Assembly: GCF_017876815.1 (NCBI RefSeq)
Contig: NZ_JAGIOS010000002.1
Span: 1,020,001 to 1,052,000, forward strand
Source: Sinorhizobium meliloti
GTDB lineage: Bacteria; Pseudomonadota; Alphaproteobacteria; Rhizobiales; Rhizobiaceae
Length of the DNA: 32,000 nucleotides
Reading direction: 5' to 3'
Of this stretch, positions 1 to 14,198 are shown piece by piece. A model generated the notes under the pieces. It saw only the letters and a program-made list of their open reading frames with translations. It searched no databases and was not told where the DNA came from. Position numbers and translations under genes: made by a program. Position 1 is the first letter of the stretch, and each line of letters opens with the position of its first letter.

Positions 1-268
1 CGATGACGACGGCATCCGCGCCGAAAAGCCTGTGCGCATGCTTGGAGACGAGTTCGTACGGGTCCGTGTAGAACACGAGGTCGCAGAAATCCGGCGCGGC
101 CAGATCGCGGTTGCTCGCATACCAGGGCACGTCCCGTTCCAGGAACGTCACCTTGTGCCCGGCAGCGTCGAGCGCGCGAAGCAAAGCACGATAGGTCGTC
201 GCATGACCGTTGCCCCACGAGGAGGACAGCGAGAGACCGAGAATGACGATGTCGAGCGGTCGCTTCAT
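1..268 (-). CDS. CgeB-like glycosyltransferase, paralogue 3; only the N-terminal 89 codons are present and the gene runs off the left window edge
   Basis: Absent from the ORF track because it is truncated. The reverse strand from ATG 268-266 reads MKRPLDIVILGLSLSSSWGNGHATTYRALLRALDAAGHKVTFLERDVPWY..., the same N-terminal pattern as the two upstream paralogues. GGAGG lies 7 nt upstream. There is an ATGA start/stop overlap with the 265..1350 gene. Confidence 0.6.
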   Translation of the reverse strand, partial: MKRPLDIVILGLSLSSSWGNGHATTYRALLRALDAAGHKVTFLERDVPWYASNRDLAAPDFCDLVFYTDPYELVSKHAHRLFGADAVVI

Positions 269-1350
269 TCGGCAGCCTCCATGCGGTGCGCCCGCCGCAA
301 GACGCGATCCACCTCCTCGGCACGATGCGCATAGGTATGCTCGGCGAGAACGCGGCGGAGCGCCCGCTCGCCGATCTCCCTGGCGCCGGCAGCCGTCAGC
401 TTCTGCATCAGTTCGGCGACGTCCCGGCCGTCTCTGGCGACCAGCACTTCTTCTCCGGGCTTCAGGAAGAGCTCGATGCCCTCCCAGTAGTCGGTGATCA
501 GGCAGGCGCCGGCGCCCGCGGCCTCGAAGACGCGGGTTGCCGGCGAGAAGCCGTTTTCGGCCATGCTGGCGCGTGAAATATTCAGGACGGCATTCGGCGT
601 CGTGTTGAAGGCATTGTGGTCGGCGGTCGGGACGTGTCCGATATAGGCGACATTCGGGGACAGAGACTTGTCGTGCCACCCGGATCCGCCGAGCAGGAAA
701 CGCCGCTGCCAGAGCTTTTGCGCCGGCTCGAGGAAGAAGGCCTCCACGCGCTCCTCCCGATCTGGCAGGCGGTTGCCGAGGAAGGCGAGATCGGCGACAA
801 AGCGCGGATCCGGCGGCACCGGATGGTGCGTCTCGGGATCGACGGCATTGTAGATCGGAACGCATTCGCGGGCACCGAGCACGCGATAGGCGTCGACCAC
901 GGGATCGCCGCCGCCATAGGTCAGCACAAGATCCAGGGAGGAAAGCGCGCGGCGAAGCGGGTGGTCGGGTGCGGCCTTGAGCTCGGCCAGAGTGGCTGGT
1001 GCATCGACATCCCAGAAGATTTTCAGCGCCGCCGAGTCTGCCGCGGCCATCACCTCGGCAAGCAGCAGCTCGTCCTCGAAGCCGACGCCGCTCGCCTTGA
1101 CGACGATCTCCGCCTTGGCTGCTTCCTGCGCCACTCGCTTCAACGCCTCGACGGTCCCGTCATAGACGACGACCCTGCACCAGGAGGGCGGGTCGATATC
1201 GCGGTGCTTCTGCCGATCGTAGACATCAGGCTCGTAGAAGGTGATCTGATAACCCCGTTCGGCAAGCGCACGGAGCAGGCCGCGATAATAGGTGGCCGCG
1301 CCGTTCCAGTAGGCCGAAACGAGACTCGATCCGTAAAATGCCAGTCTCAT
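265..1350 (-). CDS. CgeB-family (GT1-fold, DUF3880-like N-terminus) glycosyltransferase, paralogue 2, 361 aa
   Basis: The real start is the internal ATG at 1350 (MRLAFYGSSLVSAYWNGAATYYRGLLRALAERGY...). It is preceded by GGAGGAGG and overlaps the upstream stop as ATGA. The C-terminal half (FLLGGSGW...NISRASMAENGFSPATRVFEAAGAGACLITD) is typical of CgeB-like group-1 glycosyltransferases. The 70-codon upstream extension in the ORF track is Arg/Gly-rich junk. Confidence 0.8.
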   Translation of the reverse strand: MRLAFYGSSLVSAYWNGAATYYRGLLRALAERGYQITFYEPDVYDRQKHRDIDPPSWCRVVVYDGTVEALKRVAQEAAKAEIVVKASGVGFEDELLLAEVMAAADSAALKIFWDVDAPATLAELKAAPDHPLRRALSSLDLVLTYGGGDPVVDAYRVLGARECVPIYNAVDPETHHPVPPDPRFVADLAFLGNRLPDREERVEAFFLEPAQKLWQRRFLLGGSGWHDKSLSPNVAYIGHVPTADHNAFNTTPNAVLNISRASMAENGFSPATRVFEAAGAGACLITDYWEGIELFLKPGEEVLVARDGRDVAELMQKLTAAGAREIGERALRRVLAEHTYAHRAEEVDRVLRRAHRMEAAE

Positions 1351-2477
1351 ACCTCGACCTCCTCCGAAATGATCTGTCGCGCGCCGGAGCGCGGCCTGTA
1401 GGAGGCCACGATGGCGAGCAGCTCGTCGACGCGATGGCTGCATGTGTGGCGCGCCCGGACCGTCTCCAATCCGCAGGCGGTCATCTCCGCGGCGAAGTCC
1501 GGTTCGGCGAGCAGCTGGCGCAGAAGGCGCGTCATCTCCTTGCCGTCCTTGGCAAGGCAAAAATCCTTGCCCGGCCGGAAAAGCCCTTCAGCATCGGTCC
1601 ATGGCGCCGAAATCAGCGGAATGCCGCAGGCAAGCGCCTCGAAGACGCGGATTGTCGGTATTCCCGGCAGAGCCTCGACATAGGGCCGGCGCGGAATGTG
1701 CACGGTGACCCGATGCTCGGCGAAAGCCCGCGGAACGGCGGCATTGGCGAGCCAGCCGCCATAGTCGATTTTTGCGGAGCGCAAGGCCCTGAGCGCGGCC
1801 TTGGGATATCGCACGCCGCGGACGGTCGTCCTGAGCTTCAGCTTTTTCGCCGGTTCGACCAGAAAGGACATGATCTCGCTGCTGCGCTCGTCGTCGCCCC
1901 AATTGCCGATCCAGATGAGCTCGCCCCGCTTCTCCACTTCCGGCATCGGGTGGAACAGCGAGGTATCCGCAGCCTCGTGCCAGGTATGGACATGCCTTCC
2001 CCAGCCCGCCTGCAGATAGCGCTCCCGCAGCGCCTCACCGAAGGCCAGAACGAAGTCGTAACCGGAAAGGTCGAGCCGGGCGATGTCCCGCTCGGCGCTG
2101 ACGGCGCGGTGATGGGTATCGTGGAAAGCGAGCGTGAAGCGGCCGCCTTTCAGGCGAATGCGGCCGAGCTCGGCGACGAGGGCGGGATCGGTCCACTCAT
2201 GCACGATGACCATGTCGGCCTCGCAGGCCGCCGCTTCATGCTCGAAATCGGTTCCGTAGATCCCGACCCGCAAATCCGGGAAGGCCTTGCGGAAGGCCGC
2301 GATCGCTCCGTTACCCTGATCTACGATGAGATTGCGCCGGCTCCAGGAATCGCCGGGCTCGAGCGCTACGGCCTCGTGGCCGCGCCGGATGAGTTCGCGC
2401 ATGATGCCGCGCAGAAAATGCGCATTGCCGTGGTTCCAGTCGGACACCAATGAGTGGGTGTAGAAGAGAAATCGCAT
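1347..2477 (-). CDS. CgeB-family glycosyltransferase, paralogue 1, 376 aa
   Basis: ATG at 2477 (MRFLFYTHSLVSDWNHGNAHFLRGIMRELIRRGH...), with GGAG 9 nt upstream and a 4-nt gap after the upstream stop. It is colinear in sequence with the 265..1350 product (IWIGNWGDDERS / VHIPRRPYVEALPGIPTIRVFEALACGIPLISAPW). Confidence 0.8.
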   Translation of the reverse strand: MRFLFYTHSLVSDWNHGNAHFLRGIMRELIRRGHEAVALEPGDSWSRRNLIVDQGNGAIAAFRKAFPDLRVGIYGTDFEHEAAACEADMVIVHEWTDPALVAELGRIRLKGGRFTLAFHDTHHRAVSAERDIARLDLSGYDFVLAFGEALRERYLQAGWGRHVHTWHEAADTSLFHPMPEVEKRGELIWIGNWGDDERSSEIMSFLVEPAKKLKLRTTVRGVRYPKAALRALRSAKIDYGGWLANAAVPRAFAEHRVTVHIPRRPYVEALPGIPTIRVFEALACGIPLISAPWTDAEGLFRPGKDFCLAKDGKEMTRLLRQLLAEPDFAAEMTACGLETVRARHTCSHRVDELLAIVASYRPRSGARQIISEEVEV

Positions 2478-2481
2478 CCGC

Positions 2482-3633
2482 TCACTCCGCTGCCGTCAAT
2501 CGATCGGACCCGCTCATCACGCGCCGGTAGGCGGCGAGCACCGCGTCGCGCTGGGCCTCGACGGTGAAATCGGCCGAGCGCAGCCGCGCCCGCCGGCCAA
2601 GGTCGGCCCTGAGCTTTGCATCCTCCGTCAGCCGGTTGACGGCTTCGGCAAAGGCGGCGGGATCGCCGGGGTCGGCGAAAAGGGCGGCACCCTGCCAGAG
2701 CTCGCGATAAGTTTCGATGTCGGCGAGAACCAGTGCAGCGCCTGCGCGCGCCGCCTCCAGCGCCACCAGGCCGAAGGGTTCGTAGACCGATGGAGAGACG
2801 ACGATAGCGGCCCTCGACATCAGCGTCATCGTCCGGTCGTGGCTGAGCTCGCCTTCGTGATCGGCATGCATGATCGCCAGGTGCTGCCCGTTCGGCCCTT
2901 CGCAGGCACCGGCCATCACGACCGGCCAGTCTATGTCGGCGGCCGCCCTGTCGAGCACGGCGCCATTCTTGCCTTCGTCCCACCAGCGACCGGCCGCAAA
3001 AACGAAGTTTTCCCTGGCGCTGACGAAGCATGCATTCCGGCTCGCATTATAGACGACTGCGAGATCGTGGATTTCACCGTAAGTACGCGTCAGGGCCGCG
3101 GCATGGCTTCGGCTCGGCGCGAGCACCAGGTCGGCGCGGTCGAATCCCAGCCGGTTCAATCGCTTCTGCCAGCGCCAGGCTTCCGGCAGACCGGACCCGC
3201 GCACCGCAGCGAACCAGGTGGCGACGCAGGAATGCGAGACGGTGACGACGGGGACCTCCGCCGTTATTCGCGCGGCTTGGGACGGCAGGTTGAGATGGAG
3301 GAGATCGACGGAATGCCTGAGCGCAAGTTCGGACAGGAGCTGCGGCACGCGGTCGAGCTCGCTCTCGTCTTCGACCATCCAGTCGAGCGGTGTCGAGAGC
3401 CATTCGAGCCGGCCGATGCTCTTCGCCTCGCGCCGTTGCTCCGCGGAAGGTTGAGGGCCGAGGCCGACGATCAGCGTCTCCACGCCGGAACCCCGCATGG
3501 CGGCAGCGAGATCCATAGCATAGCGCCAGACGCCGCCCACGGCATCGACCGTCATCAATACCCGCCGCGGCAGTGGGCCGGAGACGTTGTGACGGTCGTC
3601 AAATCCAGCGGCGGAAAAGGGGGGAAGGCTCAC
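2482..3633 (-). CDS. GT4-family (GT-B, retaining-type) glycosyltransferase
   Basis: RVLMTVDAVGGVWRY forms the first beta strand and glycine loop. The E-x7-E motif EPFGLVALEA lies near the C-terminus. I take the GTG at 3633, which forms a GTGA overlap with the upstream stop; an alternative ATG at 3555 would clip the first strand. The 692-aa ORF in the track is an artefactual extension. Confidence 0.75.
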   Translation of the reverse strand: MSLPPFSAAGFDDRHNVSGPLPRRVLMTVDAVGGVWRYAMDLAAAMRGSGVETLIVGLGPQPSAEQRREAKSIGRLEWLSTPLDWMVEDESELDRVPQLLSELALRHSVDLLHLNLPSQAARITAEVPVVTVSHSCVATWFAAVRGSGLPEAWRWQKRLNRLGFDRADLVLAPSRSHAAALTRTYGEIHDLAVVYNASRNACFVSARENFVFAAGRWWDEGKNGAVLDRAAADIDWPVVMAGACEGPNGQHLAIMHADHEGELSHDRTMTLMSRAAIVVSPSVYEPFGLVALEAARAGAALVLADIETYRELWQGAALFADPGDPAAFAEAVNRLTEDAKLRADLGRRARLRSADFTVEAQRDAVLAAYRRVMSGSDRLTAAE

Positions 3634-4751
3634 GCGGTGACCCTCCGCGGTTGGCGCCGGATCCCGCTGACCGCGCCCCGATCGTCGTGAAGCCAGGCGT
3701 AGAGGTCGCGCAAGCCCTCGCGCCAGGGCATCCCGGCCTTCCAGCCGAGCGCATCGGCGATCGCGCGCGTATCGGCGACGAAGTACAATTGGTCGCCGGC
3801 GCGCCAATCGCTTTTTGCCGTCGCGAGCTTGCGGCCGGTCAAAAGCTCGATCTCGTTCAGCACGTCGACAATGCTGACGGCATTGCCGGGTCCGCCTCCA
3901 AGATTGAAAGCGCGCCCCTTCAGGCGGTCGATCGAGTTCAGGAGCGCCCTGTAGGCCGCGACCGCATCGGTGACATGAAGAATGTCGCGGACCTGCTTGC
4001 CGTCGCCATAGATCGAAATCGGCTCGCCGGCGAGCGCGCGAATGAGGAAATGGGCGACCCAGCCCTGGTCCTCGGTGCCGAACTGCCTCGGCCCATAGAC
4101 GCAGCTCATCCTGAGCACGGCGGTCGGCAAGCCAAAGGAGCGGGCATAATCTAGCACATACTGGTCGGCGACGCCCTTCGAGCAGCCGTAGGGTGTACAG
4201 AAATCGAGCGGTTGGGTCTCGCTGACGCCATGCTCGCGCGTCGCTTCGTCGGCCGGCATGTAGCGGCCCCGCATGTCCTGCATCTCGATGTGCCCGAGCG
4301 CGCCATAGACCTTGTTTGTGCTGGCGAAGATGACTGGCGCGCGGCGCCCGGCCAGGCGTGCGGCTTCGAGCACGTTGAGCGTGCCGCGGGCATTCGTCTC
4401 GAAATCGTCCGTCGGCCGCTCGAGGCTGGTGGTTACCGCCGTCTGGGCCGCAAAATGAAACACGGCCTTGGCGTCTCTGAAGGCAGCTTCGATCGCGCCG
4501 AGGTCGCGGATATCGGCGATCAAGGCCTCGACGGCGCGGCCGTGGCCGTCCACCAGCCATTCGAGGTTTCGCTCGACGCCGGGACGGCTGAGATTGTCGA
4601 GAACGATCACGTGCTCGCCGTCGCGCAGAAAGCTGTCGGCGAGATTGCAGCCGAGAAAGCCGCTGCCGCCTACAACCAGGATCGGCGCCGCCTTGCCGGA
4701 AAGAGCGGGCGCCGCCAGATGCCGGTCCGTGCCGACGGTCCGGCCGCTCAT
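3630..4751 (-). CDS. Extended-SDR NAD-dependent nucleotide-sugar epimerase (CDP-paratose/tyvelose 2-epimerase-like), 373 aa
   Basis: ATG at 4751 overlaps the upstream stop (ATGA). It has the Rossmann motif ILVVGGSGFLGCNL, the catalytic YGCSKG (YxxxK) and FGTEDQGWVAHF, which is characteristic of the paratose-epimerase-like clade. Confidence 0.8.
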   Translation of the reverse strand: MSGRTVGTDRHLAAPALSGKAAPILVVGGSGFLGCNLADSFLRDGEHVIVLDNLSRPGVERNLEWLVDGHGRAVEALIADIRDLGAIEAAFRDAKAVFHFAAQTAVTTSLERPTDDFETNARGTLNVLEAARLAGRRAPVIFASTNKVYGALGHIEMQDMRGRYMPADEATREHGVSETQPLDFCTPYGCSKGVADQYVLDYARSFGLPTAVLRMSCVYGPRQFGTEDQGWVAHFLIRALAGEPISIYGDGKQVRDILHVTDAVAAYRALLNSIDRLKGRAFNLGGGPGNAVSIVDVLNEIELLTGRKLATAKSDWRAGDQLYFVADTRAIADALGWKAGMPWREGLRDLYAWLHDDRGAVSGIRRQPRRVTA

Positions 4752-5854
4752 AGGACCAGCCCCCGTGCTTCCAGATGGCGTTTCATCTCGGCACCGCGGT
4801 CGATCGCGCCGGCGCTCCGGACCCATTGGGCGAAATCCGCAAGCGAATCCTCGAGCCGGTGGGCCGGTTCGAAGCCGAGAAGGTCGCGTGCCTTGGCGAT
4901 ATCGGCGAAGCAATTGCGGATGTCGCCGGAGCGGGCCTTGTTGATGATCTCCGGCTCGATATCGGGGACACCCATCGCTTCGGCAAGCAGCGAGGCGATG
5001 TCCGCAATGGCGTAGGCGTTGCCGCTGCCTATATTGATGACGTGGCCGGCGGCGTGCGGCTGTTCGAGCGCCAGCCGGAAGGCACGCGCCACGTCGCGGA
5101 CATGCACGAAGTCGCGTTTCTGGCGGCCGTCCTCGAAGACCATCGGCGATTGCCCGTTGGCAAGCCGGGAAGCGAAGTTGGCAAGCACGCCGGTATAGGG
5201 GTTGGAAAGTGCCTGGCCGGCGCCGTAGACGTTGAATAGCCGCAGCGCCACCGCGTCCGTGCCATAGGCTTCCCCGAATATAAGGACCTGACGCTCCTGC
5301 GCATATTTGGTGAGCGCGTAGATCGAAGCGAGATCGACGGGCTTATTCTCGTCGGTGGCGATCGGCCTCAGGCGTTCGCCGTCAGGACCGGACGGGTTCC
5401 AGGCGCCGGCTTTGATCTCGGCGGGGGATCGCCGGATATGCGCACGGCGCTCGCCTGCCGTAGTCTCGTACAAGCCCTCGCCGTAAACGCTCATGGAAGA
5501 GGCGACGACGATCCGCCGGATCGGCATGCCGATCATCGCCTCGAGAAGGACGGCGGTGCCCAGGTCGTTCACGCCGACATAGCGGGAAATCTCATACATC
5601 GACTGGCCGACGCCGACTTCCGCGGCGAGATGAATGACGTGATCGACGTCCTTCAGCGCGCTTTTCACCGCGTCTGCGTCGCATATGTCGGCGCGCCGCA
5701 TGTCTACTTCCGGTGGCAGCGTGACCTGCGCATCCGCATGGACCTGATCGTTCAACGCATCGAGGACGCGCAGGTCGTAGTTCCTTGAAAGAAGCTCTTC
5801 GACAACATGCCGCCCTATGAAGCCGCAGCCGCCGGTAACAAGTACTTTTGTCAT
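4748..5854 (-). CDS. Extended-SDR NAD-dependent epimerase/dehydratase (UDP-hexose 4-epimerase-like with a ~40-aa insertion), 368 aa
   Basis: ATG at 5854 (MTKVLVTGGCGFIGRHV...); the track start at 5875 is a TTG. It has the catalytic YALTKY and is the first gene of the six-gene minus-strand operon. Confidence 0.85.
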   Translation of the reverse strand: MTKVLVTGGCGFIGRHVVEELLSRNYDLRVLDALNDQVHADAQVTLPPEVDMRRADICDADAVKSALKDVDHVIHLAAEVGVGQSMYEISRYVGVNDLGTAVLLEAMIGMPIRRIVVASSMSVYGEGLYETTAGERRAHIRRSPAEIKAGAWNPSGPDGERLRPIATDENKPVDLASIYALTKYAQERQVLIFGEAYGTDAVALRLFNVYGAGQALSNPYTGVLANFASRLANGQSPMVFEDGRQKRDFVHVRDVARAFRLALEQPHAAGHVINIGSGNAYAIADIASLLAEAMGVPDIEPEIINKARSGDIRNCFADIAKARDLLGFEPAHRLEDSLADFAQWVRSAGAIDRGAEMKRHLEARGLVL

Positions 5855-5897
5855 AATGCACCTGATGATGACCAATCAGAGATAGAGACAAACCTCC

Positions 5898-5922
5898 AAC
5901 AAACCTGCGTCGCAAATGTTCC
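5898..5922 (-). promoter_or_regulatory. EcfG/RpoE2-type ECF sigma promoter candidate for the SDR-GT operon
   Basis: The minus strand reads GGAAC-ATTTGCGACGCAGGTTT-GTT and ends 43 nt before ATG 5854. The -35 element is embedded in the 14-mer AAAGAAGAAGGAAC, which is shared with the ino1 promoter. Confidence 0.45.
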
Positions 5923-5961
5923 TTCTTCTTTGACTTCTTCTTCTTTGATGTTCTTCTTTGA
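5923..5961. repeat. Three tandem direct copies of TTCTTCTTTGA (minus-strand TCAAAGAAGAA), spaced 15 and 13 bp apart
   Basis: Exact 11-mers lie at 5923-5933, 5938-5948 and 5951-5961 in the AT-rich divergent intergenic region. They sit immediately upstream of the minus-strand -35 element. Confidence 0.75.
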
Positions 5962-6038
5962 TCCCCCGCGGGGCGTCGCCCGTGCCAAGGTACAAACCTC
6001 TCTTTCGCGGGAGTGTTCCACGCGAACTGCGGGCATCA

Positions 6039-6063
6039 GGAACAAAAGCTGCAACATCAAGTT
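6039..6063 (+). promoter_or_regulatory. EcfG/RpoE2-type ECF sigma promoter candidate for the dehydrogenase/oxidoreductase operon
   Basis: GGAAC-AAAAGCTGCAACATCAA-GTT on the plus strand, 124 nt upstream of ATG 6188. Confidence 0.45.
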
Positions 6064-6187
6064 AAGGGCGGAAGGCTCTTGAACATTGCTCAGAGCTTTC
6101 TTTGGCCGGGGCAGGGGCGGGTCCGGCGGACCTCGCGACACCCTTTTCGGGCTGCCGGACAGGTCTCCACCGAGGGAAGGAGCTGAC

Positions 6188-7180
6188 ATGAACATCAGCA
6201 TATCTCAGCGGACGGACACGATGTCCGCCGCTATCGTCACCGGGCCGGGTACCGTGCGCATAGAGACGTTGCCGTTGCCGCAACCGGGTCGCGGCCAGGT
6301 GCGGATAAGGCTCGAAGGCTGCGGCGTATGCGCCTCCAATCTAGTTCCCTGGGCGGGTCCGGAATGGATGCAGTTTCCGACGGAACCCGGCGCGCTCGGA
6401 CACGAGGGCTGGGGAATTATCGACGCGGTCGGCGAGGACGTGCACGGTTTCGCGCCGGGCGATCGCGTGGCGGCGCTTTCCTACCATGCCTATGCCACGC
6501 ACGATATCGCCGATCAGAGCGCGATCGCGCCCTTGCCGGCGTCTCTTGCAGGTCAGCCCTTTCCCGGCGAACCGCTCGGCTGTGCCTTCAACATCTTCCG
6601 GCGCAGCGCGATCAGTCCGGGAGAGACCGTGGCGATCGTCGGCATCGGTTTTCTCGGGATTCTTCTGACCGAGCTCGCAAGCGCTGCCGGCGCGCGGGTG
6701 ATAGCGATATCGCGCAGGCCGTCTTCGCTCGCCGCGGCCAAGCAGGCCGGCGCGAGCCAAGTGATTCCCATGGACGATCACTGGCGGATCATCGAAGAGG
6801 TGAAGCAACTGACCGGCGGGCGCTTCTGCGATTGCGTCATCGAGGCGGTCGGCAAGCAATGGCCGCTCGATCTTGCCGGCGAACTGACGAAGGAGCGCGG
6901 CAGGCTCGTCGTCGCAGGATATCACCAGGATGGCCCGCGGCAGGTGAACATGCAGCTCTGGAACTGGCGCGGCCTCGACGTGATCAACGCGCATGAACGC
7001 GATCCTGCCGTCTACATGCGCGGCATGAACGAGGCGATCGAAGCGACCGCAGCGGGTCGGTTCTCTCCCTCGCGGCTCTACACCCATCGGTTCCCGCTCG
7101 AAGAACTCGGCGCCGCGCTCGACATTACGCGCGACCGGCCGGAAGGTTTCATCAAAGCGCTGGTGATCTGCCATGAGTGA
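6188..7180 (+). CDS. Zinc-type medium-chain (MDR) alcohol/polyol dehydrogenase, 330 aa
   Basis: ATG 6188 is preceded by GGAAGGAG. It has the motifs EGCGVCASN and GHEGWGIIDAVGEDV, plus the Rossmann motif VAIVGIGFLGILL. Confidence 0.85.
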   Translation: MNISISQRTDTMSAAIVTGPGTVRIETLPLPQPGRGQVRIRLEGCGVCASNLVPWAGPEWMQFPTEPGALGHEGWGIIDAVGEDVHGFAPGDRVAALSYHAYATHDIADQSAIAPLPASLAGQPFPGEPLGCAFNIFRRSAISPGETVAIVGIGFLGILLTELASAAGARVIAISRRPSSLAAAKQAGASQVIPMDDHWRIIEEVKQLTGGRFCDCVIEAVGKQWPLDLAGELTKERGRLVVAGYHQDGPRQVNMQLWNWRGLDVINAHERDPAVYMRGMNEAIEATAAGRFSPSRLYTHRFPLEELGAALDITRDRPEGFIKALVICHE

Positions 7181-8198
7181 CGCAATACAGCTTTCAACGA
7201 GCCCGAAGGCCATCATCCGCCCCCGCGTCGGCTTTCTCGGCGTTGGAAGAATCGGCTTCCACCGGATGAAGGCGGTGGTCGAAACCGGATCCGTCGAAAC
7301 CGTCGCGATCTTCGATCCTTCGCCGGAAATGGCGGCGGCGGCCCGCGAGTTGACCCCCGAGGCTTCCGTCGTGAACTCACTCGAGGCACTGCTCGACCAC
7401 GAGCTCGACGGCATCGTGATCGCCTCGCCGAGCGCGCTCCACGCCGCCCAATCGATCGTGGCTCTGGAGCAGGGCGTGGCGGTTTTTTGCCAAAAACCGC
7501 TCGGCCGCACGCGCGACGAGACCGCGGCGGTGGTCGAAACCGCCCGGCATGTCGACAGGCTTTTGAGCGTCGATCTCTCCTATCGCTACACCGACGGCAT
7601 GCGGCAGATCCGCGACCTGATCGCGTCGGGCGAACTCGGCACCGTGTTCGCGGTGGACCTCACCTTTCACAACGCCTACGGGCCGAGCAAGCCGTGGTTC
7701 TACGACAAGGCGCTTTCCGGCGGCGGCTGCGTCATAGATCTCGGCGTGCACCTGGTCGACCTCCTCCTATGGGTCCTCGGGTTCCCGGACGTCGCTCGGG
7801 TGGAAAGCAGGCTCTTCGCCAAAGGTCTGCCCATCCGCCGCGACGGCGACGAGGTCGAGGATTACGCGGTCGCTACAGTCGAACTGGCCAACGGCGTTCT
7901 CGCCCGGATCGCATGCTCATGGCATCTGCAGGCCGGATGCGATGCGGTGATCAGCGCCGACTTCTACGGCACCGAAGGCGGCGCCAGCCTTAGAAACGTC
8001 AACGGATCGTATCTGGACTTCACGGCCGAACGCTATCGCGGCACGCAAGGCGAGGTGCTTGCGGTTCCCCCCGACGCCTGGGGTGGACGCGCGGCGGCCG
8101 GCTGGGCCGAGAGGCTGGCCGCAGGCGAGCGCTTCGATCCCGACAACGAGTATCTGGTCACGGTGGCGGATGTGCTGGACAGGATTTATGGGCGGTAG
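7173..8198 (+). CDS. Gfo/Idh/MocA-family NAD(P)-dependent oxidoreductase, 341 aa
   Basis: It has VGFLGVGRIGFHRM (Rossmann) and FCQKPL (an EKP-motif variant). It overlaps the upstream gene by 8 nt (ATGAGTGA). Confidence 0.88.
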   Translation: MSDAIQLSTSPKAIIRPRVGFLGVGRIGFHRMKAVVETGSVETVAIFDPSPEMAAAARELTPEASVVNSLEALLDHELDGIVIASPSALHAAQSIVALEQGVAVFCQKPLGRTRDETAAVVETARHVDRLLSVDLSYRYTDGMRQIRDLIASGELGTVFAVDLTFHNAYGPSKPWFYDKALSGGGCVIDLGVHLVDLLLWVLGFPDVARVESRLFAKGLPIRRDGDEVEDYAVATVELANGVLARIACSWHLQAGCDAVISADFYGTEGGASLRNVNGSYLDFTAERYRGTQGEVLAVPPDAWGGRAAAGWAERLAAGERFDPDNEYLVTVADVLDRIYGR

Positions 8199-8227: not shown

Positions 8228-9976
8228 CTAATCCCCGTCGATCCGGCGCCGAAGGAGCCTCGCATAGCGCGCGGCTGCGGCCTCCAGCCGGGGGACTTCC
8301 TCGGGGGCGGCCGCGGACTTTGCCGACATCCACAGTCCCAGCTGGAAAGCGAGATAGCAGATTTCCAAGAGCTCCATCAGCCCGGCATTTTGACCGCGCG
8401 ACCAGCCTTCGGAGACGGCCGCACGCAGCTCCGCCCGCTCCTCCCGCGTGAGGTCGAATTCTATGCTCGCTCCCGCAATGTCCCAGCCGATGTCCTGACA
8501 GCCGATGAGGTCATGGGCACTGCTGTGGTCGAGCGCGTCGGTCTTGAGAATGTGTCGCTCTCCTTCGACCAGCCATTCCCACCGGTGAAGCCGGTTGTCC
8601 GTATCGACCGGCAGGATCGTCGAATTGTATCGCTCCGCATCGCCGAACCTGGTCTTCAACCGCGACGCTGCCGCTCTGCCCAATGCCTCTTCGGTGTTGA
8701 TCATTGCCATCTCGCAAAGTTTGGCCATGGATGCCCCTTGCGCCGCTGGCGGCGGCAGGCTGCGCGCCCGGAAGGACAGATATCGGCCGAGATGCGCGAT
8801 GAAGGCCGGCCGGCGGAATTCCGGCGGCGCCATCAGCCTCGCGGAAACCCATTTCTGAACCAGAAAGCCATGGCACAATCCGGCGACCGGGGGCGTGAAG
8901 CCTGCATCGGCGAGGAGGCGGGCCTTGACGAGCTTTCGCTGCCCAGCGTCGCCGAGTCCCGCAAACTTGACGAGCCACGGACCGTCGGCGGTGTGCGCCA
9001 GGAATTTCCGGCGTTCGAACCTGCCGTCCACGGGAGGCCAGCGATCGCCGGGAAGCGTCTTGCGCCATAAGCCGGCTGAGACGTCTTCGAGCGGCTTCTC
9101 GAGCGGGCCGACGAGATGGGCGATCCAATCGGCGAGGTGGCGCGCAGAGTTGGACGGCCTGATCAGGAGATCGTCGACGTCGATGACATTGCGCGGCCTC
9201 GCCGCCCAGCGCTCGCGATGACGGCCGCAGGATTGCGGTCCAAGCCCGCCCTTGTGGCCGGGGAAGAAGTGAATGCGCCTGCCGCTGACGCCGTGATCCT
9301 CCAGCCAATCCGCGACGCATCCGAACGAGCTGCCGGAAAGGCCGGGTCCTTCGTCCACGATCGCGAAATTCGCCGCCCGGTCGCGCAGCAGCCGTTCCGC
9401 AAGTTGCGGCGCGACTGCAAGCCGCCGTTGGAACGGATCGCCGATCGGCCGCAGTGTGACCGGAGGCGCGGCACCGATGGAAGCCGCGACAATCGCCGAA
9501 AGCGTGGTCCCGATGCTGCGCAGGCCGATCACCACCGTGTCGGCAGGAAGCCCGGAGCCTGCCGCGGCCTCGAGATAGCTCTCCGGGTAAAGAGCATAGA
9601 AGGCGTAGCCTTCCGGCTCGCGAATGCTGAGGGAAAGCGGTGCCTGGCTGTTCGCCAGCGACCTTGCGACACGGGCCGGCACGACCACCGGGCCGGCGAA
9701 GCCCTGGCGCCAGGACCGGGCGACGAGTCCGGCAAGGTCGAGGAGGAGGCACTCGCCCGTCTGGCGCGATGCGGAGATTTCGTCGGCTCCCATCTGCGCC
9801 AATTCCAGGTCGGCAAGCCCCTGCACCAGTTCCCCGGCCCTGAGCAGGATGGCGACGAGCTCGGTGTGGCGCTCGATGCCCGCCGGCAGGTGTTGGGCCG
9901 CCTGCAGGCGCGAGGCGATCTCTGCGCATAGCATGTCGGCGCGCTCCAGGCGCTTTGCGTCACCGTATACGAGCAT
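8228..9976 (-). CDS. Hypothetical 582-aa multidomain protein: central PRTase-like segment plus C-terminal protein-kinase/APH-like segment
   Basis: This is a long ORF with an ATG start and GC3-rich coding character. VVIGLRSIGTTLSAIVAASIG ... FAIVDEGPGLSGSSFG resembles a phosphoribosyltransferase nucleotide loop. WLVKFAG ... LHRWEWLVEGERHILKTDALDH..HDLIGCQDIGWDIAG resembles the Lys strand and catalytic/activation loops of APH-type kinases, but without the canonical HxDxxxxN. The domain calls are tentative. Confidence 0.65.
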   Translation of the reverse strand: MLVYGDAKRLERADMLCAEIASRLQAAQHLPAGIERHTELVAILLRAGELVQGLADLELAQMGADEISASRQTGECLLLDLAGLVARSWRQGFAGPVVVPARVARSLANSQAPLSLSIREPEGYAFYALYPESYLEAAAGSGLPADTVVIGLRSIGTTLSAIVAASIGAAPPVTLRPIGDPFQRRLAVAPQLAERLLRDRAANFAIVDEGPGLSGSSFGCVADWLEDHGVSGRRIHFFPGHKGGLGPQSCGRHRERWAARPRNVIDVDDLLIRPSNSARHLADWIAHLVGPLEKPLEDVSAGLWRKTLPGDRWPPVDGRFERRKFLAHTADGPWLVKFAGLGDAGQRKLVKARLLADAGFTPPVAGLCHGFLVQKWVSARLMAPPEFRRPAFIAHLGRYLSFRARSLPPPAAQGASMAKLCEMAMINTEEALGRAAASRLKTRFGDAERYNSTILPVDTDNRLHRWEWLVEGERHILKTDALDHSSAHDLIGCQDIGWDIAGASIEFDLTREERAELRAAVSEGWSRGQNAGLMELLEICYLAFQLGLWMSAKSAAAPEEVPRLEAAAARYARLLRRRIDGD

Positions 9977-10127: not shown

Positions 10128-11231
10128 ATGCGATCGAACTCCATTCGGGTCGGGCTGGTCGGTGTCGGCAATTGCGCGTCCTCCCTCGTCCAAGGGCTGA
10201 CATTCTATCGCGACGCGAAGGAGGACGAGCCGGTTCCGGGGCTGATGCATACCAATCTCGGCGGATATCACGTCGGCGATATCGAGGTCTCCGCGGCCTT
10301 CGACGTCGCCGCTTCGAAGGTCGGGCGCGATGTCGCCGAAGCCATCTACGCCGCTCCCAATAACACGTTCCGCTTTGCGGATGTTCCCGCCACCGGCGTA
10401 GTCGTCGAGCGCGGCAGGACGCTCGACGGCATCGGCCGCTATCTGCGCGAGGAGATCGAGGAGTCCGATGCGCCCGCCGCTGACGTTGCGGAGGTCCTGC
10501 GGCAGACCGGGACGGACGTGCTCGTCTCCTATCTTCCGGTCGGTTCCGAAGTCGCCACGCGCTGGTATGCGGAGCAGGCGCTTGCCGCCGGCTGCGGCTT
10601 CGTCAACTGCATTCCCGTTTTCATCGCCTCGGACAAGTCGTGGCAGCGCAAATTTGCCGAGCGCGGCCTGCCGCTCATCGGCGACGACATAAAGAGCCAG
10701 GTCGGCGCGACCATCGTGCACCGGTTGCTTGCCAATCTCTTTCGCGACCGGGGGGTGCGCATAGATCGGACCTATCAGCTCAATTTCGGCGGCAATACCG
10801 ACTTTCTCAACATGCTCGAGCGGGAACGGCTCGAATCGAAGAAGATTTCCAAGACCCAATCGGTCGTCAGCCAGATGGATATTCCGCTCGCGGCCGGCGA
10901 CATCCACGTCGGCCCGAGCGATCACGTCCCTTGGCTTGCCGACCGCAAGTTCGCCTATATTCGAGTCGAGGGCACGACATTCGGCAACGTTCCCCTCAAC
11001 GTCGAAGTGAAGCTCGAAGTCTGGGACTCGCCGAATTCCGCAGGAGTCGTCATCGATGCGGTTCGCTGCGCCAAACTCGCAATCGACCGCGGCATCGCCG
11101 GTCCGCTGATCGCCCCTTCGAGCTACTTCATGAAATCGCCGCCGCAGCAGTTCACCGATGCCGAAGCGCGTAGACGCCTGGAGGAATTCATCGCCGGCGA
11201 TACCGACGCACTTCTGGGGGCGGCCGAGTGA
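10128..11231 (+). CDS. ino1: myo-Inositol-1-phosphate synthase (bacterial/archaeal short type), 367 aa
   Basis: It has [43 protein letters not shown] and SKKISKTQS, the diagnostic MIPS blocks seen in actinobacterial and archaeal enzymes. AGGAG lies 10 nt upstream. Confidence 0.92.
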
Positions 11232-11827
11232 CGACCACTTTCCTTCTGGTGCGCCATGCCGCCCATGACAGGGTCGGCTGCTTTCTTGCCGGGCGGACCG
11301 GCGACGTACCGCTCGGCATCGCGGGCCGCGAGCAGGCTCAGCGGCTCGCGGCCCGTCTGGCCGGCGAAGGCATAGGCTCGATCTATGCGAGCCCGCGCAA
11401 GCGCACGCAGGAAACGGCCGCGGCGATCGCCGCGGCGTCGGATGTCGCGGAGGTCGTGACCACGGAAGCGCTCGACGAGGTGGATTTCGGCGACTGGTCG
11501 GGCAAGACCTTCGACGTCCTCGATACCGACCCGCTCTGGCGGCGATGGAACGCTATGCGAAGCCTCGTGCGTGCCCCCGGCGGCGAGACGATGCTGGACG
11601 TGCAATGCCGGGCGGTGGGACTTGTCGCGGCGCTGGCGCAGCGGCACGGCCAGGAGAAGGTCGCTCTGGTCAGCCACGCGGACGTCATCAAAACCCTGGT
11701 CTGTCACATCCTCGGCCTTTCCTCCGACGCCTGGCCGCGCTTCGATATCGCGCCTGCCTCCGTCTCGGTGCTGGTGATGGGCGATTGGGGAGCGAAAATC
11801 CAGACGCTGAACGAAAACGTGTCGTAG
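11228..11827 (+). CDS. Histidine-phosphatase superfamily (PGAM-like) phosphatase, 199 aa
   Basis: It has LLVRHAAH (the RH motif), [11 protein letters not shown] and the second His in VSHADVIK. Its GTG start overlaps the ino1 stop (GTGA), so it is translationally coupled to ino1. Confidence 0.85.
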
Positions 11828-11898
11828 CCGGCCGGCCCGTCCGCCGGTGCCGCAAGCGCGGGAAGCCGGCCGGCGTTTCCGGCAATTCGGAGGTACTC

Positions 11899-12861
11899 AT
11901 GATCGAAGCCGCCATGATCTGGAACGAGCCGAACAACAAGTCGCATTGGGATCCGGAGATCGATCCGGACTGGAGCCGCTTTGCCCATATGGCAAAGCTG
12001 GCCGCGGCTGCGATCCGGGAGGTCAATCCCGGGCTCACGCGCGTGCTCGGCGGAATTTCGCCGATTGATCCGAACTTCCTCGCTCTTATGAAATCGCAAG
12101 GCGTGCTCGACCACGTCGACGCCGTTGCGGCCCATGGTTTCCCACTCGACTGGAACCTCTGGCAGATCCATGAATGGCCGCAGAAGCTTGATGAACTGAA
12201 GAGCGTCACCGAACTGCCGGTCTGGGTAAGCGAGGTCGGCGTCTCCACCTTCGGCGCCGAGGAGGTGCAGCTTTGGGGACTGAAGCGAACCGCCGAACTC
12301 CTGAAGGGCCGGGCGGATCGGATCCAATGGTACAGCCTCTACGACCTGCCGCGGGCCTGGCCCGCGACGACGCGACACCGGGAGGCCGAGGGCTCGTCCT
12401 ATTACCGGCATTTCTACATGGGTCTTCTGCGCGAGGACGGCTCGCCGAAACTGGCGTTCGAGGAGTTTGCCCGCCACACGCCGGAGATCGGGCTCGTACA
12501 ATGGTTCCATTTCGAGGACCCGCGCCTCGATGATGCCGTCGCCTGGATGAAGCGCCTAGGCGTCACATATCTGCGCACCGGTCTCTCCTGGGCCGACCGC
12601 TTCCGGCCGAACGCGCTCGACTGGTTCGACCGCCAGATGGAGGCACTCGAAGATTTCGACGTCACCGTCACCTTCTGCTTCACGCCCGAGCACCGGGGGC
12701 TTGCCCCGCACCACACGAGCGCGCCCCTCGTTCCGGAGGAATTCGCCGAATTCTGTGCCGAAATGACGGCGCGTTATGCGCCCGCCCCGTCGTCCTTCGA
12801 GCCCTTGCGCCCGGGCCTCGCGATGGCGTCGACGAGCCTGCCGATCGAGCCGCGTGAATAG
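11899..12861 (+). CDS. Clan GH-A (GH39/GH5-like) TIM-barrel glycosidase-like protein, apparently circularly permuted, 320 aa
   Basis: ATG 11899 has GGAGG 5 nt upstream. The protein starts directly at the strand-4 acid/base motif (MIEAAMIWNEPNN) and has a nucleophile-type motif (LPVWVSEVG). Its C-terminus looks like strands 1-3 of the barrel (GVTYLRTGLSWADRF...DWFDRQMEAL...VTVTFCFTPEH...FAEFCAEMTARY). The 438-aa track ORF is an out-of-context extension. Confidence 0.65.
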   Translation: MIEAAMIWNEPNNKSHWDPEIDPDWSRFAHMAKLAAAAIREVNPGLTRVLGGISPIDPNFLALMKSQGVLDHVDAVAAHGFPLDWNLWQIHEWPQKLDELKSVTELPVWVSEVGVSTFGAEEVQLWGLKRTAELLKGRADRIQWYSLYDLPRAWPATTRHREAEGSSYYRHFYMGLLREDGSPKLAFEEFARHTPEIGLVQWFHFEDPRLDDAVAWMKRLGVTYLRTGLSWADRFRPNALDWFDRQMEALEDFDVTVTFCFTPEHRGLAPHHTSAPLVPEEFAEFCAEMTARYAPAPSSFEPLRPGLAMASTSLPIEPRE

Positions 12862-14198
12862 GTCACGCCCTGGTAGAGAGCGAGCATCGCCGAAGCCCAG
12901 CGGAGATAGGCGGCCGGCATGTTCAGGGCTCTGGCAAGCCAGAAGACACGGTGGCTGTTCGCGCTGATCGCGCTACGCAGCCAGTAAACCAGCATCCGCC
13001 GTGCGGGCAAGCCGCTCCACTTCGGCGCAACGCGTTTCCTCGGCTTGATGCCGGAACGCGGCCAGGCCAGCCGGAAGGCCAGCCCCTCTCGCCTTTGCCT
13101 GAAACCGGCAGCCTGTGTCTCCACGACGAAGGCACTGTCGACCGCACTCAGTTCGAGCCTTCCCTCCTCGATCGCATCGGCCACGAGCGCCTGCAGCAAG
13201 GGTGAGCGAACGACAACCACATTCGTTCCCCGGCCGTCGGACGAATAGGGCTCGACCCAGGCGTCGCCGAAGGAAATGTCGGCGGTTTCGGCCACGACGT
13301 CGTCGCAGAAATTGCAGGCGGAATTCTGGAAGAACCCGGCTCCCCAGTCGCCGTCGACCAGATGCCACCAATCCTTGCTTCTCGTGCTTCCGTCCTTGAG
13401 CCGCAGATGGGCCGTGTACCAGTTCGCCGGTCTTGCCGTATCCTTCAGGCGGTAATCGACGCCCGCCACGGCGTTCATTTCCGTGTCCATCTGCCACGCG
13501 AAACTTTCCACGAAGCGGGTGCTCTTCATGTGTCCGCAGAAGAGGCCGAGGGTGAAGGCAAGGCGCTCCTCAAGCACCGGGTCGTTGAGGCAGAGGAGAT
13601 GGATCGCTTTGATGAAGCAGGGAATCCCGACGACTGCGTAGCGGCCGGGTTGCCGCTTCATTTCGGCGATGACACGAGAGAGCTCCACCGGATAATAGCG
13701 CGACTTGGCGCCCTTGCGCAGGTCATCCGCGGTCCGCGAGACCTGATACTGGAAAAGACGTTCGCCGGCGCCTGAACAGGGAACTACATGCGCCACCGCG
13801 TCGACGAGGTTCCTCTTCAGAAGCTCCGCGGCCGTCCAACTGGCCATGCCGCCGGAACTGCCGTCCGCTCGAAAGCTGCCTTCGCTGACATGGCCGACAT
13901 AGGCTGCCTCGAAGCGGCCGATCCGCGGATCGTAAAATTGCGCCGATCCGAAGCGCGCCTCGGCGATCTGGTCTTCGCTTCGGGCGTGGGGCGAAAAGGG
14001 GCACAGCTCGGCGAACCCGTCGGGGCGATGTGCAGCGGCCGGTTTTAGCTGGCCGTAGCGATCGAGACTCATCGCAGCGCTGCCGCCCGATTGCGCCATG
14101 CACGTGCCGCAACCGATGCAAAGCCCGGATTTCGCCATCTGCCCCGGCGAGAGCAAGGCGCTGGCCGAGGCGGGTGCGGGGCGCTCAGGCGAGAACAT
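12774..14198 (-). CDS. Coenzyme F420 hydrogenase/dehydrogenase beta-subunit (FrhB/FdhB)-like Fe-S flavoprotein, 474 aa
   Basis: The N-terminus has a ferredoxin-type motif, CIGCGTC...ELCP. The FrhB-like core is YAVVGIPCFIKAI, LFCGHMKS and DISFGDAW. ATG 14198 overlaps the upstream gene by 14 nt; an alternative start exists at 14138 (MAKSGLCIGCGTC). Confidence 0.8.
   Translation of the reverse strand: MFSPERPAPASASALLSPGQMAKSGLCIGCGTCMAQSGGSAAMSLDRYGQLKPAAAHRPDGFAELCPFSPHARSEDQIAEARFGSAQFYDPRIGRFEAAYVGHVSEGSFRADGSSGGMASWTAAELLKRNLVDAVAHVVPCSGAGERLFQYQVSRTADDLRKGAKSRYYPVELSRVIAEMKRQPGRYAVVGIPCFIKAIHLLCLNDPVLEERLAFTLGLFCGHMKSTRFVESFAWQMDTEMNAVAGVDYRLKDTARPANWYTAHLRLKDGSTRSKDWWHLVDGDWGAGFFQNSACNFCDDVVAETADISFGDAWVEPYSSDGRGTNVVVVRSPLLQALVADAIEEGRLELSAVDSAFVVETQAAGFRQRREGLAFRLAWPRSGIKPRKRVAPKWSGLPARRMLVYWLRSAISANSHRVFWLARALNMPAAYLRWASAMLALYQGVTYSRGSIGRLVDAIARPGRKGSKDDGAGA

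Follow-up and report, generated by a model that had tools for sequence, protein, structure and literature searches.

A circularly permuted clan GH-A-type barrel protein encoded on the Sinorhizobium meliloti megaplasmid pSymB

A stretch of 32,000 nucleotides of the Sinorhizobium meliloti megaplasmid pSymB (contig NZ_JAGIOS010000002.1, positions 1,020,001 to 1,052,000; hereafter the window) carries at 11899-12861 of the forward strand an open reading frame (ORF) for a protein of 320 amino acids (aa) plus stop. We read this protein, with a probability of about 0.85, as a single-domain barrel of the type found in clan GH-A of the glycoside hydrolases (GH), which is a natural circular permutant as are all members of its family, has PslG of Pseudomonas aeruginosa as its closest solved relative, and probably processes a glycoside within a conserved gene cassette. 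The chain order supported by our analysis is N-beta4-alpha4...beta8-alpha8-beta1-alpha1-beta2-alpha2-beta3-alpha3-C, that is, a complete barrel whose chain opens with strand 4 and closes behind helix 3; the canonical order of clan GH-A runs from beta1 to beta8, whereas here beta4-beta8 is followed by beta1-beta3. A first-pass annotation, made by a model from the sequence without database searches, had suggested a permutation of this kind, starting from the observation that an ORF preceded by GGAGG at a distance of 5 nucleotides (nt) opens at the strand-4 WNEPN motif, which can be read directly from the DNA. All the sequence elements that it named were found where it had placed them.

Two barrel segments in swapped order

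The window protein begins with MIEAAMIWNEPNN, carries LPVWVSEVG at aa 106-114 and reads GVTYLRTGLSWAD...FCFTPEH...EEFAEFCAEMTARY over aa 221-293, its conserved part closing at aa 293 with ..EEFAEFCAEMTARY. Searching 1.84 billion cluster representatives, we obtained 1580 relatives, and the full-length proteins among the 150 best of them fell into two classes only, those permuted as the query and those in normal order; the latter (P0179, P0197, P0233, P0236, P0245, P0249, P0250, P0253, P0265 and P0269) are 30-40% identical to it. By BLASTP, aa 1-187 of the window protein matched residues 111-295 of P0179 (E=5e-41) while aa 197-294 matched residues 10-109 (E=6e-17), and the same swapped two-block pattern was obtained with P0197. 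Since residues 10-109 form beta1-alpha3 in the AlphaFold2 model of P0179 (predicted local distance difference test, pLDDT, 95), the C-terminal segment corresponds to barrel strands 1-3, as had been proposed. The protein thus contains what is the hallmark of a circular permutant, two homologous blocks that have changed places and are linked through the old termini. Four normal-order relatives were also compared by tblastn with the whole window and matched only two blocks, both within ORF 11899-12861 and in its frame; no strand 1-3-like sequence was detected by this search upstream of the ORF, in agreement with the first-pass annotation, and that region holds a histidine-phosphatase gene ending at 11827.

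Profile searches gave a comparable picture for solved structures. With phmmer against the PDB, aa 3-184 aligned with residues 132-319 of PslG and aa 201-293 with residues 26-128, the match of the native protein being swapped and marginal (E=0.047). The two swapped hits expected in the first-pass annotation were obtained with PslG and the relatives, but not with the Pfam models Glyco_hydro_cc, GH39 and GH53, which reached aa 3-118 only and scored below their cut-offs; the NCBIfam scan of the protein gave no match. None of these comparisons produced a collinear alignment, the outcome that would have told against the first-pass annotation.

We also restored the normal order in silico: six permuted proteins were divided at the alignment column that holds residue 194, and aa 194-294 were set before aa 1-193. 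The six re-joined sequences aligned end to end and collinearly with five normal-order relatives, with a gap of a single residue at the junction (RYA followed by MIEAAMIWNEPNN, against RFGHLFDVVELWNEPNN), so that joining the C-terminus to the N-terminus does recreate the usual order. The joint profile of these sequences matched PslG, a GH39 member, collinearly (positions 4-293 to chain residues 21-325, E=7.7e-14), followed by GH53, GH1 and GH39 xylosidases.

The AlphaFold2 model of the window protein, built on an alignment of 32 rather similar sequences, displays one domain of eight strand-helix units (pLDDT 79, predicted template modeling score 0.81), that is, the (beta/alpha)8 barrel of clan GH-A. 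Its strands cover aa 2-7, 47-50, 75-79, 108-113, 141-145, 197-200, 224-230 and 254-260 and its final helix aa 279-293; at the junction of the old termini, a helix at 186-192 is followed by the strand at 197-200. When the model of the normal-order protein P0179 was compared with known structures using Foldseek, PslG was the best match (E=1.4e-17, template modeling (TM) score 0.75); after it came 477 others at E<=0.001, those listed being clan GH-A enzymes. The permuted model gave only 17 matches in the PDB at E<=0.001, nearly all to non-glycosidase triosephosphate isomerase-type (TIM) barrels and with TM scores below 0.5. Because a sequential aligner cannot track a permutation, the permuted model is unusable for family assignment by Foldseek and the P0179 model was used in its place; the contrast between the two models is the outcome that a permutation predicts. 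Of the structural checks proposed in the first-pass annotation, the prediction gave an eight-stranded barrel, while the structural link to PslG came through P0179 and not from the permuted model itself.

The architecture is not peculiar to S. meliloti. A word-indexed homologue search found at least 8000 protein clusters of ~310 aa, the best 120 of which are 296-329 aa long and 77-90% identical to the window protein. All 31 homologues that we aligned start with MI(E/D)A at the same Met and end with ..RYAP, after which a variable tail follows, so the start point asked about in the first-pass annotation is common to them all. Scanning one genome per species, we found the permuted protein in at least 595 genomes, at 69-85% identity, from Alpha-, Beta- and Gammaproteobacteria, Planctomycetales, Gemmatimonadales, Chthoniobacterales/Verrucomicrobiales and Rhodothermales. 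Such identity across distant phyla is unusually high and suggests that the cassette has been transferred horizontally and is also strongly constrained. Within S. meliloti the gene is 100% identical to NC_003078.1 257009-257971 and 99.5-100% identical across dozens of pSymB replicons.

The ratio of nonsynonymous to synonymous substitution rates (dN/dS, Nei-Gojobori method) was calculated between the window gene and eight orthologues, one further pair being saturated. For aa 1-193 the values were 0.08-0.25; aa 194-296, the more constrained segment, gave 0.02-0.13, while the tail (aa 297-320) gave 0.4-2.7 or saturation and is unconstrained. Both barrel segments are under strong purifying selection. 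A point beyond the first-pass annotation is that the last 24 codons are not conserved, their length and sequence varying among the aligned homologues and their pLDDT falling below 50, and that the end of the gene (12774-12861) overlaps the 3' end of a convergent gene. The permutation is, in our view, the defining feature of a large, old and horizontally spread family.

Catalytic residues and closest known systems

In PslG the acid/base is Glu165 and the nucleophile Glu276 (PMC11912335); numbering in the PDB chain is offset from the native one by 26. In the phmmer alignment Glu10 of the window protein falls on chain residue 139 (native Glu165) and Glu112 on chain residue 250 (native Glu276), the latter lying in the LPVWVSEVG segment that the first-pass annotation had called nucleophile-like. 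Glu10 and Glu112 are invariant in the 31 close homologues and in the joint alignment of permuted and normal-order proteins, as are the W-N-E-P residues (W8-N9-E10-P11), the strand-2 Arg (LRTG) and the strand-6 His (HGFP). The protein thus has the two residues that mark clan GH-A, an acid/base Glu in an N-E-P motif where canonical strand 4 ends and a nucleophile Glu where canonical strand 7 ends. With these catalytic residues invariant, the retaining clan GH-A catalytic center is intact, from which we predict activity.

Assignment to a family within the clan is less direct. The GH39 model PF01229 scored 13.4 bits against a cut-off of 26 and covered aa 7-59 only, and only when the re-joined family profile is used does the likeness to PslG, which belongs to GH39, become significant; of the earlier proposal of a GH5/GH39-type enzyme, what stands is PslG as closest solved relative, the Pfam GH39 cut-off not being reached. 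The Prokaryotic Genome Annotation Pipeline (PGAP) places the identical coding sequence (CDS) at 11899-12861 and names it "beta-xylosidase". This name is unsupported by the sequence comparisons: the best match of the native protein to a characterized GH39 xylosidase is 1px8, with E=0.11 over ~40 residues, and the re-joined profile matched xylosidases at E=1.6e-5 to 5e-4 over part of the barrel only. The permutation explains why the family is without Pfam or NCBIfam models and why thousands of its members are named "beta-xylosidase", an annotation that order-aware models would correct.

PslG (GH39, clan GH-A; PDB 5bx9, 4zn2 and 9g17) is the closest solved relative by sequence profile as well as by the Foldseek comparison of P0179. 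PslG and the window protein have in common the NEP acid/base and TE.G nucleophile motifs, and both are encoded in clusters for polysaccharide or glycoconjugate biosynthesis. They differ in that PslG keeps its strands in the usual sequence from beta1 to beta8 and carries a membrane anchor at the N-terminus and an additional beta-sandwich domain at the C-terminus (416-residue construct), whereas the window protein is permuted, consists of a bare barrel of ~296 aa with no signal or anchor, and is only ~17% identical to it. Moreover, the permuted family has invariant loops of its own, rich in His, Arg and Tyr (NNKSHWD, TTRHxEAEGSSYYRH and HHTS), which are absent from PslG.

Nearer in sequence are the normal-order sister proteins (e.g. 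P0179, P0197, P0236 and P0269), uncharacterized, which are 31-40% identical over both segments and have in common with the permuted proteins the motifs QWFHF, LRTGxSWAD, TPP/TPE, WNEPNN, HGFP, WxTExG and WYSLxDL. Normal-order relatives are often fused to, or adjoin, SDR-type epimerases (SDR, short-chain dehydrogenase/reductase); one locus has glycosyltransferases as well. Relatives of P0179 (P0276-P0335) frequently carry a C-terminal NAD-dependent epimerase/dehydratase domain; the names given to such fused proteins, 'CDP-paratose 2-epimerase' or 'GDP-mannose 4,6-dehydratase', take no account of their glycosidase-like barrel at the N-terminus. At locus L083 (10001-11641) the fusion gene lies beside another epimerase, a B12/radical-S-adenosylmethionine pair and glycosyltransferases. 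Neither inositol-3-phosphate synthase (INO1) nor the TIGR04290 methyltransferase, both partners of the permuted gene (see below), was found beside normal-order relatives in the five loci inspected. The SDR epimerase of the window was compared with the SDR domain of the fusions and set aside, the identity of 29% being generic and uninformative.

To our knowledge few natural circular permutations of catalytic TIM barrels have been described, GH70 being the main example among glycosidases. The GH70 glucansucrases and GtfB-type enzymes of clan GH-H have a naturally permuted catalytic (beta/alpha)8 barrel, with GH13 and GtfC-type GH70 as non-permuted relatives, and their cut lies one secondary-structure element away from that of the window protein, which falls between alpha3 and beta4. 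They are, in contrast, large, multidomain, secreted proteins of another clan with an Asp/Glu/Asp alpha-retaining triad, and theirs was an evolutionarily independent event. The GH70 order alpha3-beta4...alpha8-beta1...beta3 has been explained by permutation-by-duplication (PMC4919382).

Gene neighborhood and proposed function

Coordinates of the permuted-barrel gene, its segments and its immediate partners are given in Table 1.

Table 1. Features of the permuted-barrel gene and adjoining genes in the window.
Feature	Position	Strand	Basis or remark
INO1, inositol-3-phosphate synthase	10128-11231	+	PF01658, TIGR03450; conserved cassette partner
Histidine phosphatase (His_Phos_1)	11228-11827	+	Pfam, NCBIfam; start overlaps INO1 stop
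Shine-Dalgarno-like GGAGG	11889-11893	+	Read from sequence; 5-nt spacer, then ATG at 11899
Segment aa 1-193, canonical beta4-alpha8	11899-12477	+	BLASTP to P0179, AlphaFold2 model, dN/dS
Glu10 codon, WNEPN motif, predicted general acid/base	11926-11928	+	PslG alignment, invariance
Glu112 codon, WVSEVG motif, predicted nucleophile	12232-12234	+	PslG alignment, invariance
Junction of old C-terminus (alpha8, ..KLAFEEFARH) and old N-terminus (TPEIGLVQWFHF, beta1)	12454-12489	+	Alignment, model
Segment aa 194-296, canonical beta1-alpha3	12478-12786	+	BLASTP to P0179, AlphaFold2 model (last helix 279-293), dN/dS
C-terminal tail aa 297-320 plus stop, non-conserved	12787-12861	+	Last 24 codons = 12787-12858
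88-nt 3'-end overlap of permuted-barrel CDS and convergent FrhB-like gene 12774-14198 (-)	12774-12861		ORF list, PGAP

The INO1 gene product matched TIGR03450/PF01658 with E=5e-167, its score of 555.5 bits lying below the curated cut-off of 638. Cassette linkage was counted over 80 related loci (L001-L080): INO1 and the phosphatase each lie near the permuted gene in 68 of the 80; for a Glyco_trans_1_2 transferase the count is 61, for an epimerase 44. A CmoB-like methyltransferase (TIGR04290) is present in 65/80, in most cases immediately upstream and in the same orientation. In L004 (7247-8008) and L030 (7222-8004), where gene coordinates were checked, the methyltransferase gene ends in an overlap of its stop with the permuted gene's start. 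In the window the barrel gene directly follows the phosphatase gene, with no methyltransferase between them.

Upstream of the cassette, the flank at 265-8198 of the window encodes three GT-B glycosyltransferases (two Glyco_trans_1_2 and one GT4 of 692 aa), an SDR epimerase, an IolM-like zinc dehydrogenase and an IolG-like oxidoreductase, and PGAP places a gene of the UDP-glucuronate decarboxylase family just beyond it; it looks like an uncharacterized pSymB glycoconjugate locus involving inositol chemistry. We made no use of a possible link with the uxs1/uxe arabinose-polysaccharide operon of S. meliloti, as gene order differs. Downstream and convergent lie the genes of an FrhB-like protein and a polysaccharide pyruvyl transferase; the 88-nt convergent 3' overlap is also found in the related Ensifer loci L001 and L002. 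Divergent from INO1, an ORF of 582 aa (8228-9976, reverse strand) has no Pfam or NCBIfam match and is conserved beside the cassette in 15 of the 80 loci at 36-68% identity.

Because the complete barrel keeps both catalytic Glu residues, a retaining glycosidase or transglycosidase is the most likely prediction; it would act by double displacement, with Glu10 on the first strand of the chain as acid/base and Glu112 on canonical beta7 as nucleophile. The chain begins with a barrel strand and so has no signal peptide, which makes a cytoplasmic location most likely. There the barrel would probably trim or remodel a glycoside made by the cassette, either inositol-linked or a polysaccharide precursor, a substrate class suggested by the neighboring genes.

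A serious alternative is a biosynthetic, non-hydrolytic role, in which the barrel would be a synthase, a transglycosylase, a phosphorylase-like enzyme, an enzyme with a nucleotide-sugar-derived substrate or a non-catalytic sugar-binding subunit, with fold and permutation unchanged. The company of INO1, phosphatase, glycosyltransferases and epimerases in a biosynthetic cassette, the lack of a signal peptide, the fusion of normal-order relatives to NAD-dependent epimerase/dehydratase domains and the invariant His/Arg/Tyr-rich loops absent from PslG are all consistent with such a role. However, the NEP motif and both catalytic Glu residues are invariant, as expected of a working retaining glycosidase center, and a transglycosidase uses the same machinery, so that this explanation partly overlaps our own; we consider it less likely than not.

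Origin of the permutation and its significance

When 11 permuted sequences, after re-joining, and 24 in normal order were compared over 286 columns by Neighbor-Joining, the two classes were separated in 100 of 100 bootstraps; this is a distance method used without an outgroup, and the re-joining might add a small shared signal. The clean split suggests one origin. Most likely the permuted proteins derive from normal-order relatives through a single event, in which a tandem duplicate was fused in frame and both its ends were lost. Direct joining of the old termini (..KLAFEEFARH-TPEIGLVQWFHF) is what tandem copies would leave if they fused head to tail in frame and then lost both ends. The first-pass annotation had left the choice between a natural permutant and the remnant of a trimmed tandem duplication: the family-wide natural permutant stands, a recent local remnant does not, and the two options are not true alternatives, as duplication and truncation are the likely historical route.

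The same chain order could have arisen by fission of a normal-order gene into beta1-alpha3 and beta4-alpha8 parts that were re-fused in opposite order, for which it speaks that the 150 representatives include no 1-3/4-8/1-3 or 4-8/1-3/4-8 intermediates. On the other hand, no split two-gene form was seen among those same representatives; many short matches among the 1580 relatives resemble contig-end fragments; the link between the old termini is only a few residues long and contains nothing foreign, in keeping with copies fused head to tail in frame, and the GH70 precedent has been explained by duplication (PMC4919382). We thus regard fission and re-fusion as improbable, and duplication remains the route that we favor.

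That the gene is a decaying, functionless remnant of a recent tandem duplication within pSymB is scarcely credible: its unconstrained 3' tail overlaps a convergent gene and trimmed duplication is the usual route to permutation, but at least 8000 protein clusters and the genomes of at least 595 species show the same architecture, start and end, both barrel segments have a dN/dS of 0.02-0.25, and identity across dozens of S. meliloti pSymB replicons is 99.5-100%. Just as implausible is a misannotated or frameshifted start, with strands 1-3 of a longer gene upstream and the C-terminal copy as a partial duplicate; the frame is indeed open upstream to an ATG at 11545 (438-aa ORF) and some database proteins of 444-505 aa extend N-terminally, but the extension overlaps the His_Phos_1 gene in another frame without similarity to strands 1-3, the longer proteins (P0122, P0133, P0135 and P0151) read as frameshifted methyltransferase fusions whose barrel part still begins with MIEA.., and other taxa show the start overlapping with the stop codon of the methyltransferase gene. 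With 31/31 homologues starting at the same Met, and the overlap present where coordinates were checked, the longer frameshifted gene that would have overturned the first-pass annotation is not found.

The same four proteins had been considered as duplication intermediates and were rejected, since we read them as frameshifted methyltransferase read-throughs. With their Arg/Pro-rich out-of-frame stretches, these proteins might be taken for real fusions.

Several points weigh against our reading as a whole. The AlphaFold2 model of the permuted protein is moderately confident and its conserved active-site loops are of low confidence, the pairing of beta3 with beta4 is inferred, and structure and activity are predicted throughout the family. 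Tandem-duplication intermediates were not found among the 150 best representatives, and tblastn detected no copy of the TIGR04290 methyltransferase in the 32-kb window. A cytoplasmic glycosidase in a biosynthetic cluster would be unusual, PslG being membrane-anchored and periplasmic, and the SDR-epimerase fusions of the normal-order relatives hint at a chemistry with substrates derived from nucleotide sugars rather than simple hydrolysis.

Our search of the open-access literature, to which CAZy, InterPro and subscription journals were external, found nothing on the permuted family, on the cassette or on a permutation in clan GH-A or GH39, the only cases of permutation that it turned up being GH70 and, at the level of domains, MalS. 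We put forward tentatively, at somewhat less than even odds, that this is the first recognized natural permutation in clan GH-A, independent of GH70 and with nearly the same cut, and that it marks an uncharacterized, horizontally spread, cross-phylum pathway of INO1, phosphatase, glycosyltransferases, CmoB-like methyltransferase and the permuted barrel itself, by which soil and plant-associated bacteria would make or remodel a glycoside or polysaccharide that contains inositol.

The permuted family leaves the understanding of how glycosidases work unchanged. With a normal-order sister detectable by plain BLAST, a very large and highly conserved membership and good structure models on both sides, it offers a clean natural system in which to study how barrels tolerate new termini and how permutation by duplication proceeds. 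The tight linkage to the INO1 cassette, seen on pSymB as well as in numerous soil bacteria, points to a glycoconjugate pathway that is as yet unstudied and that can be tested in S. meliloti, a genetically tractable species.

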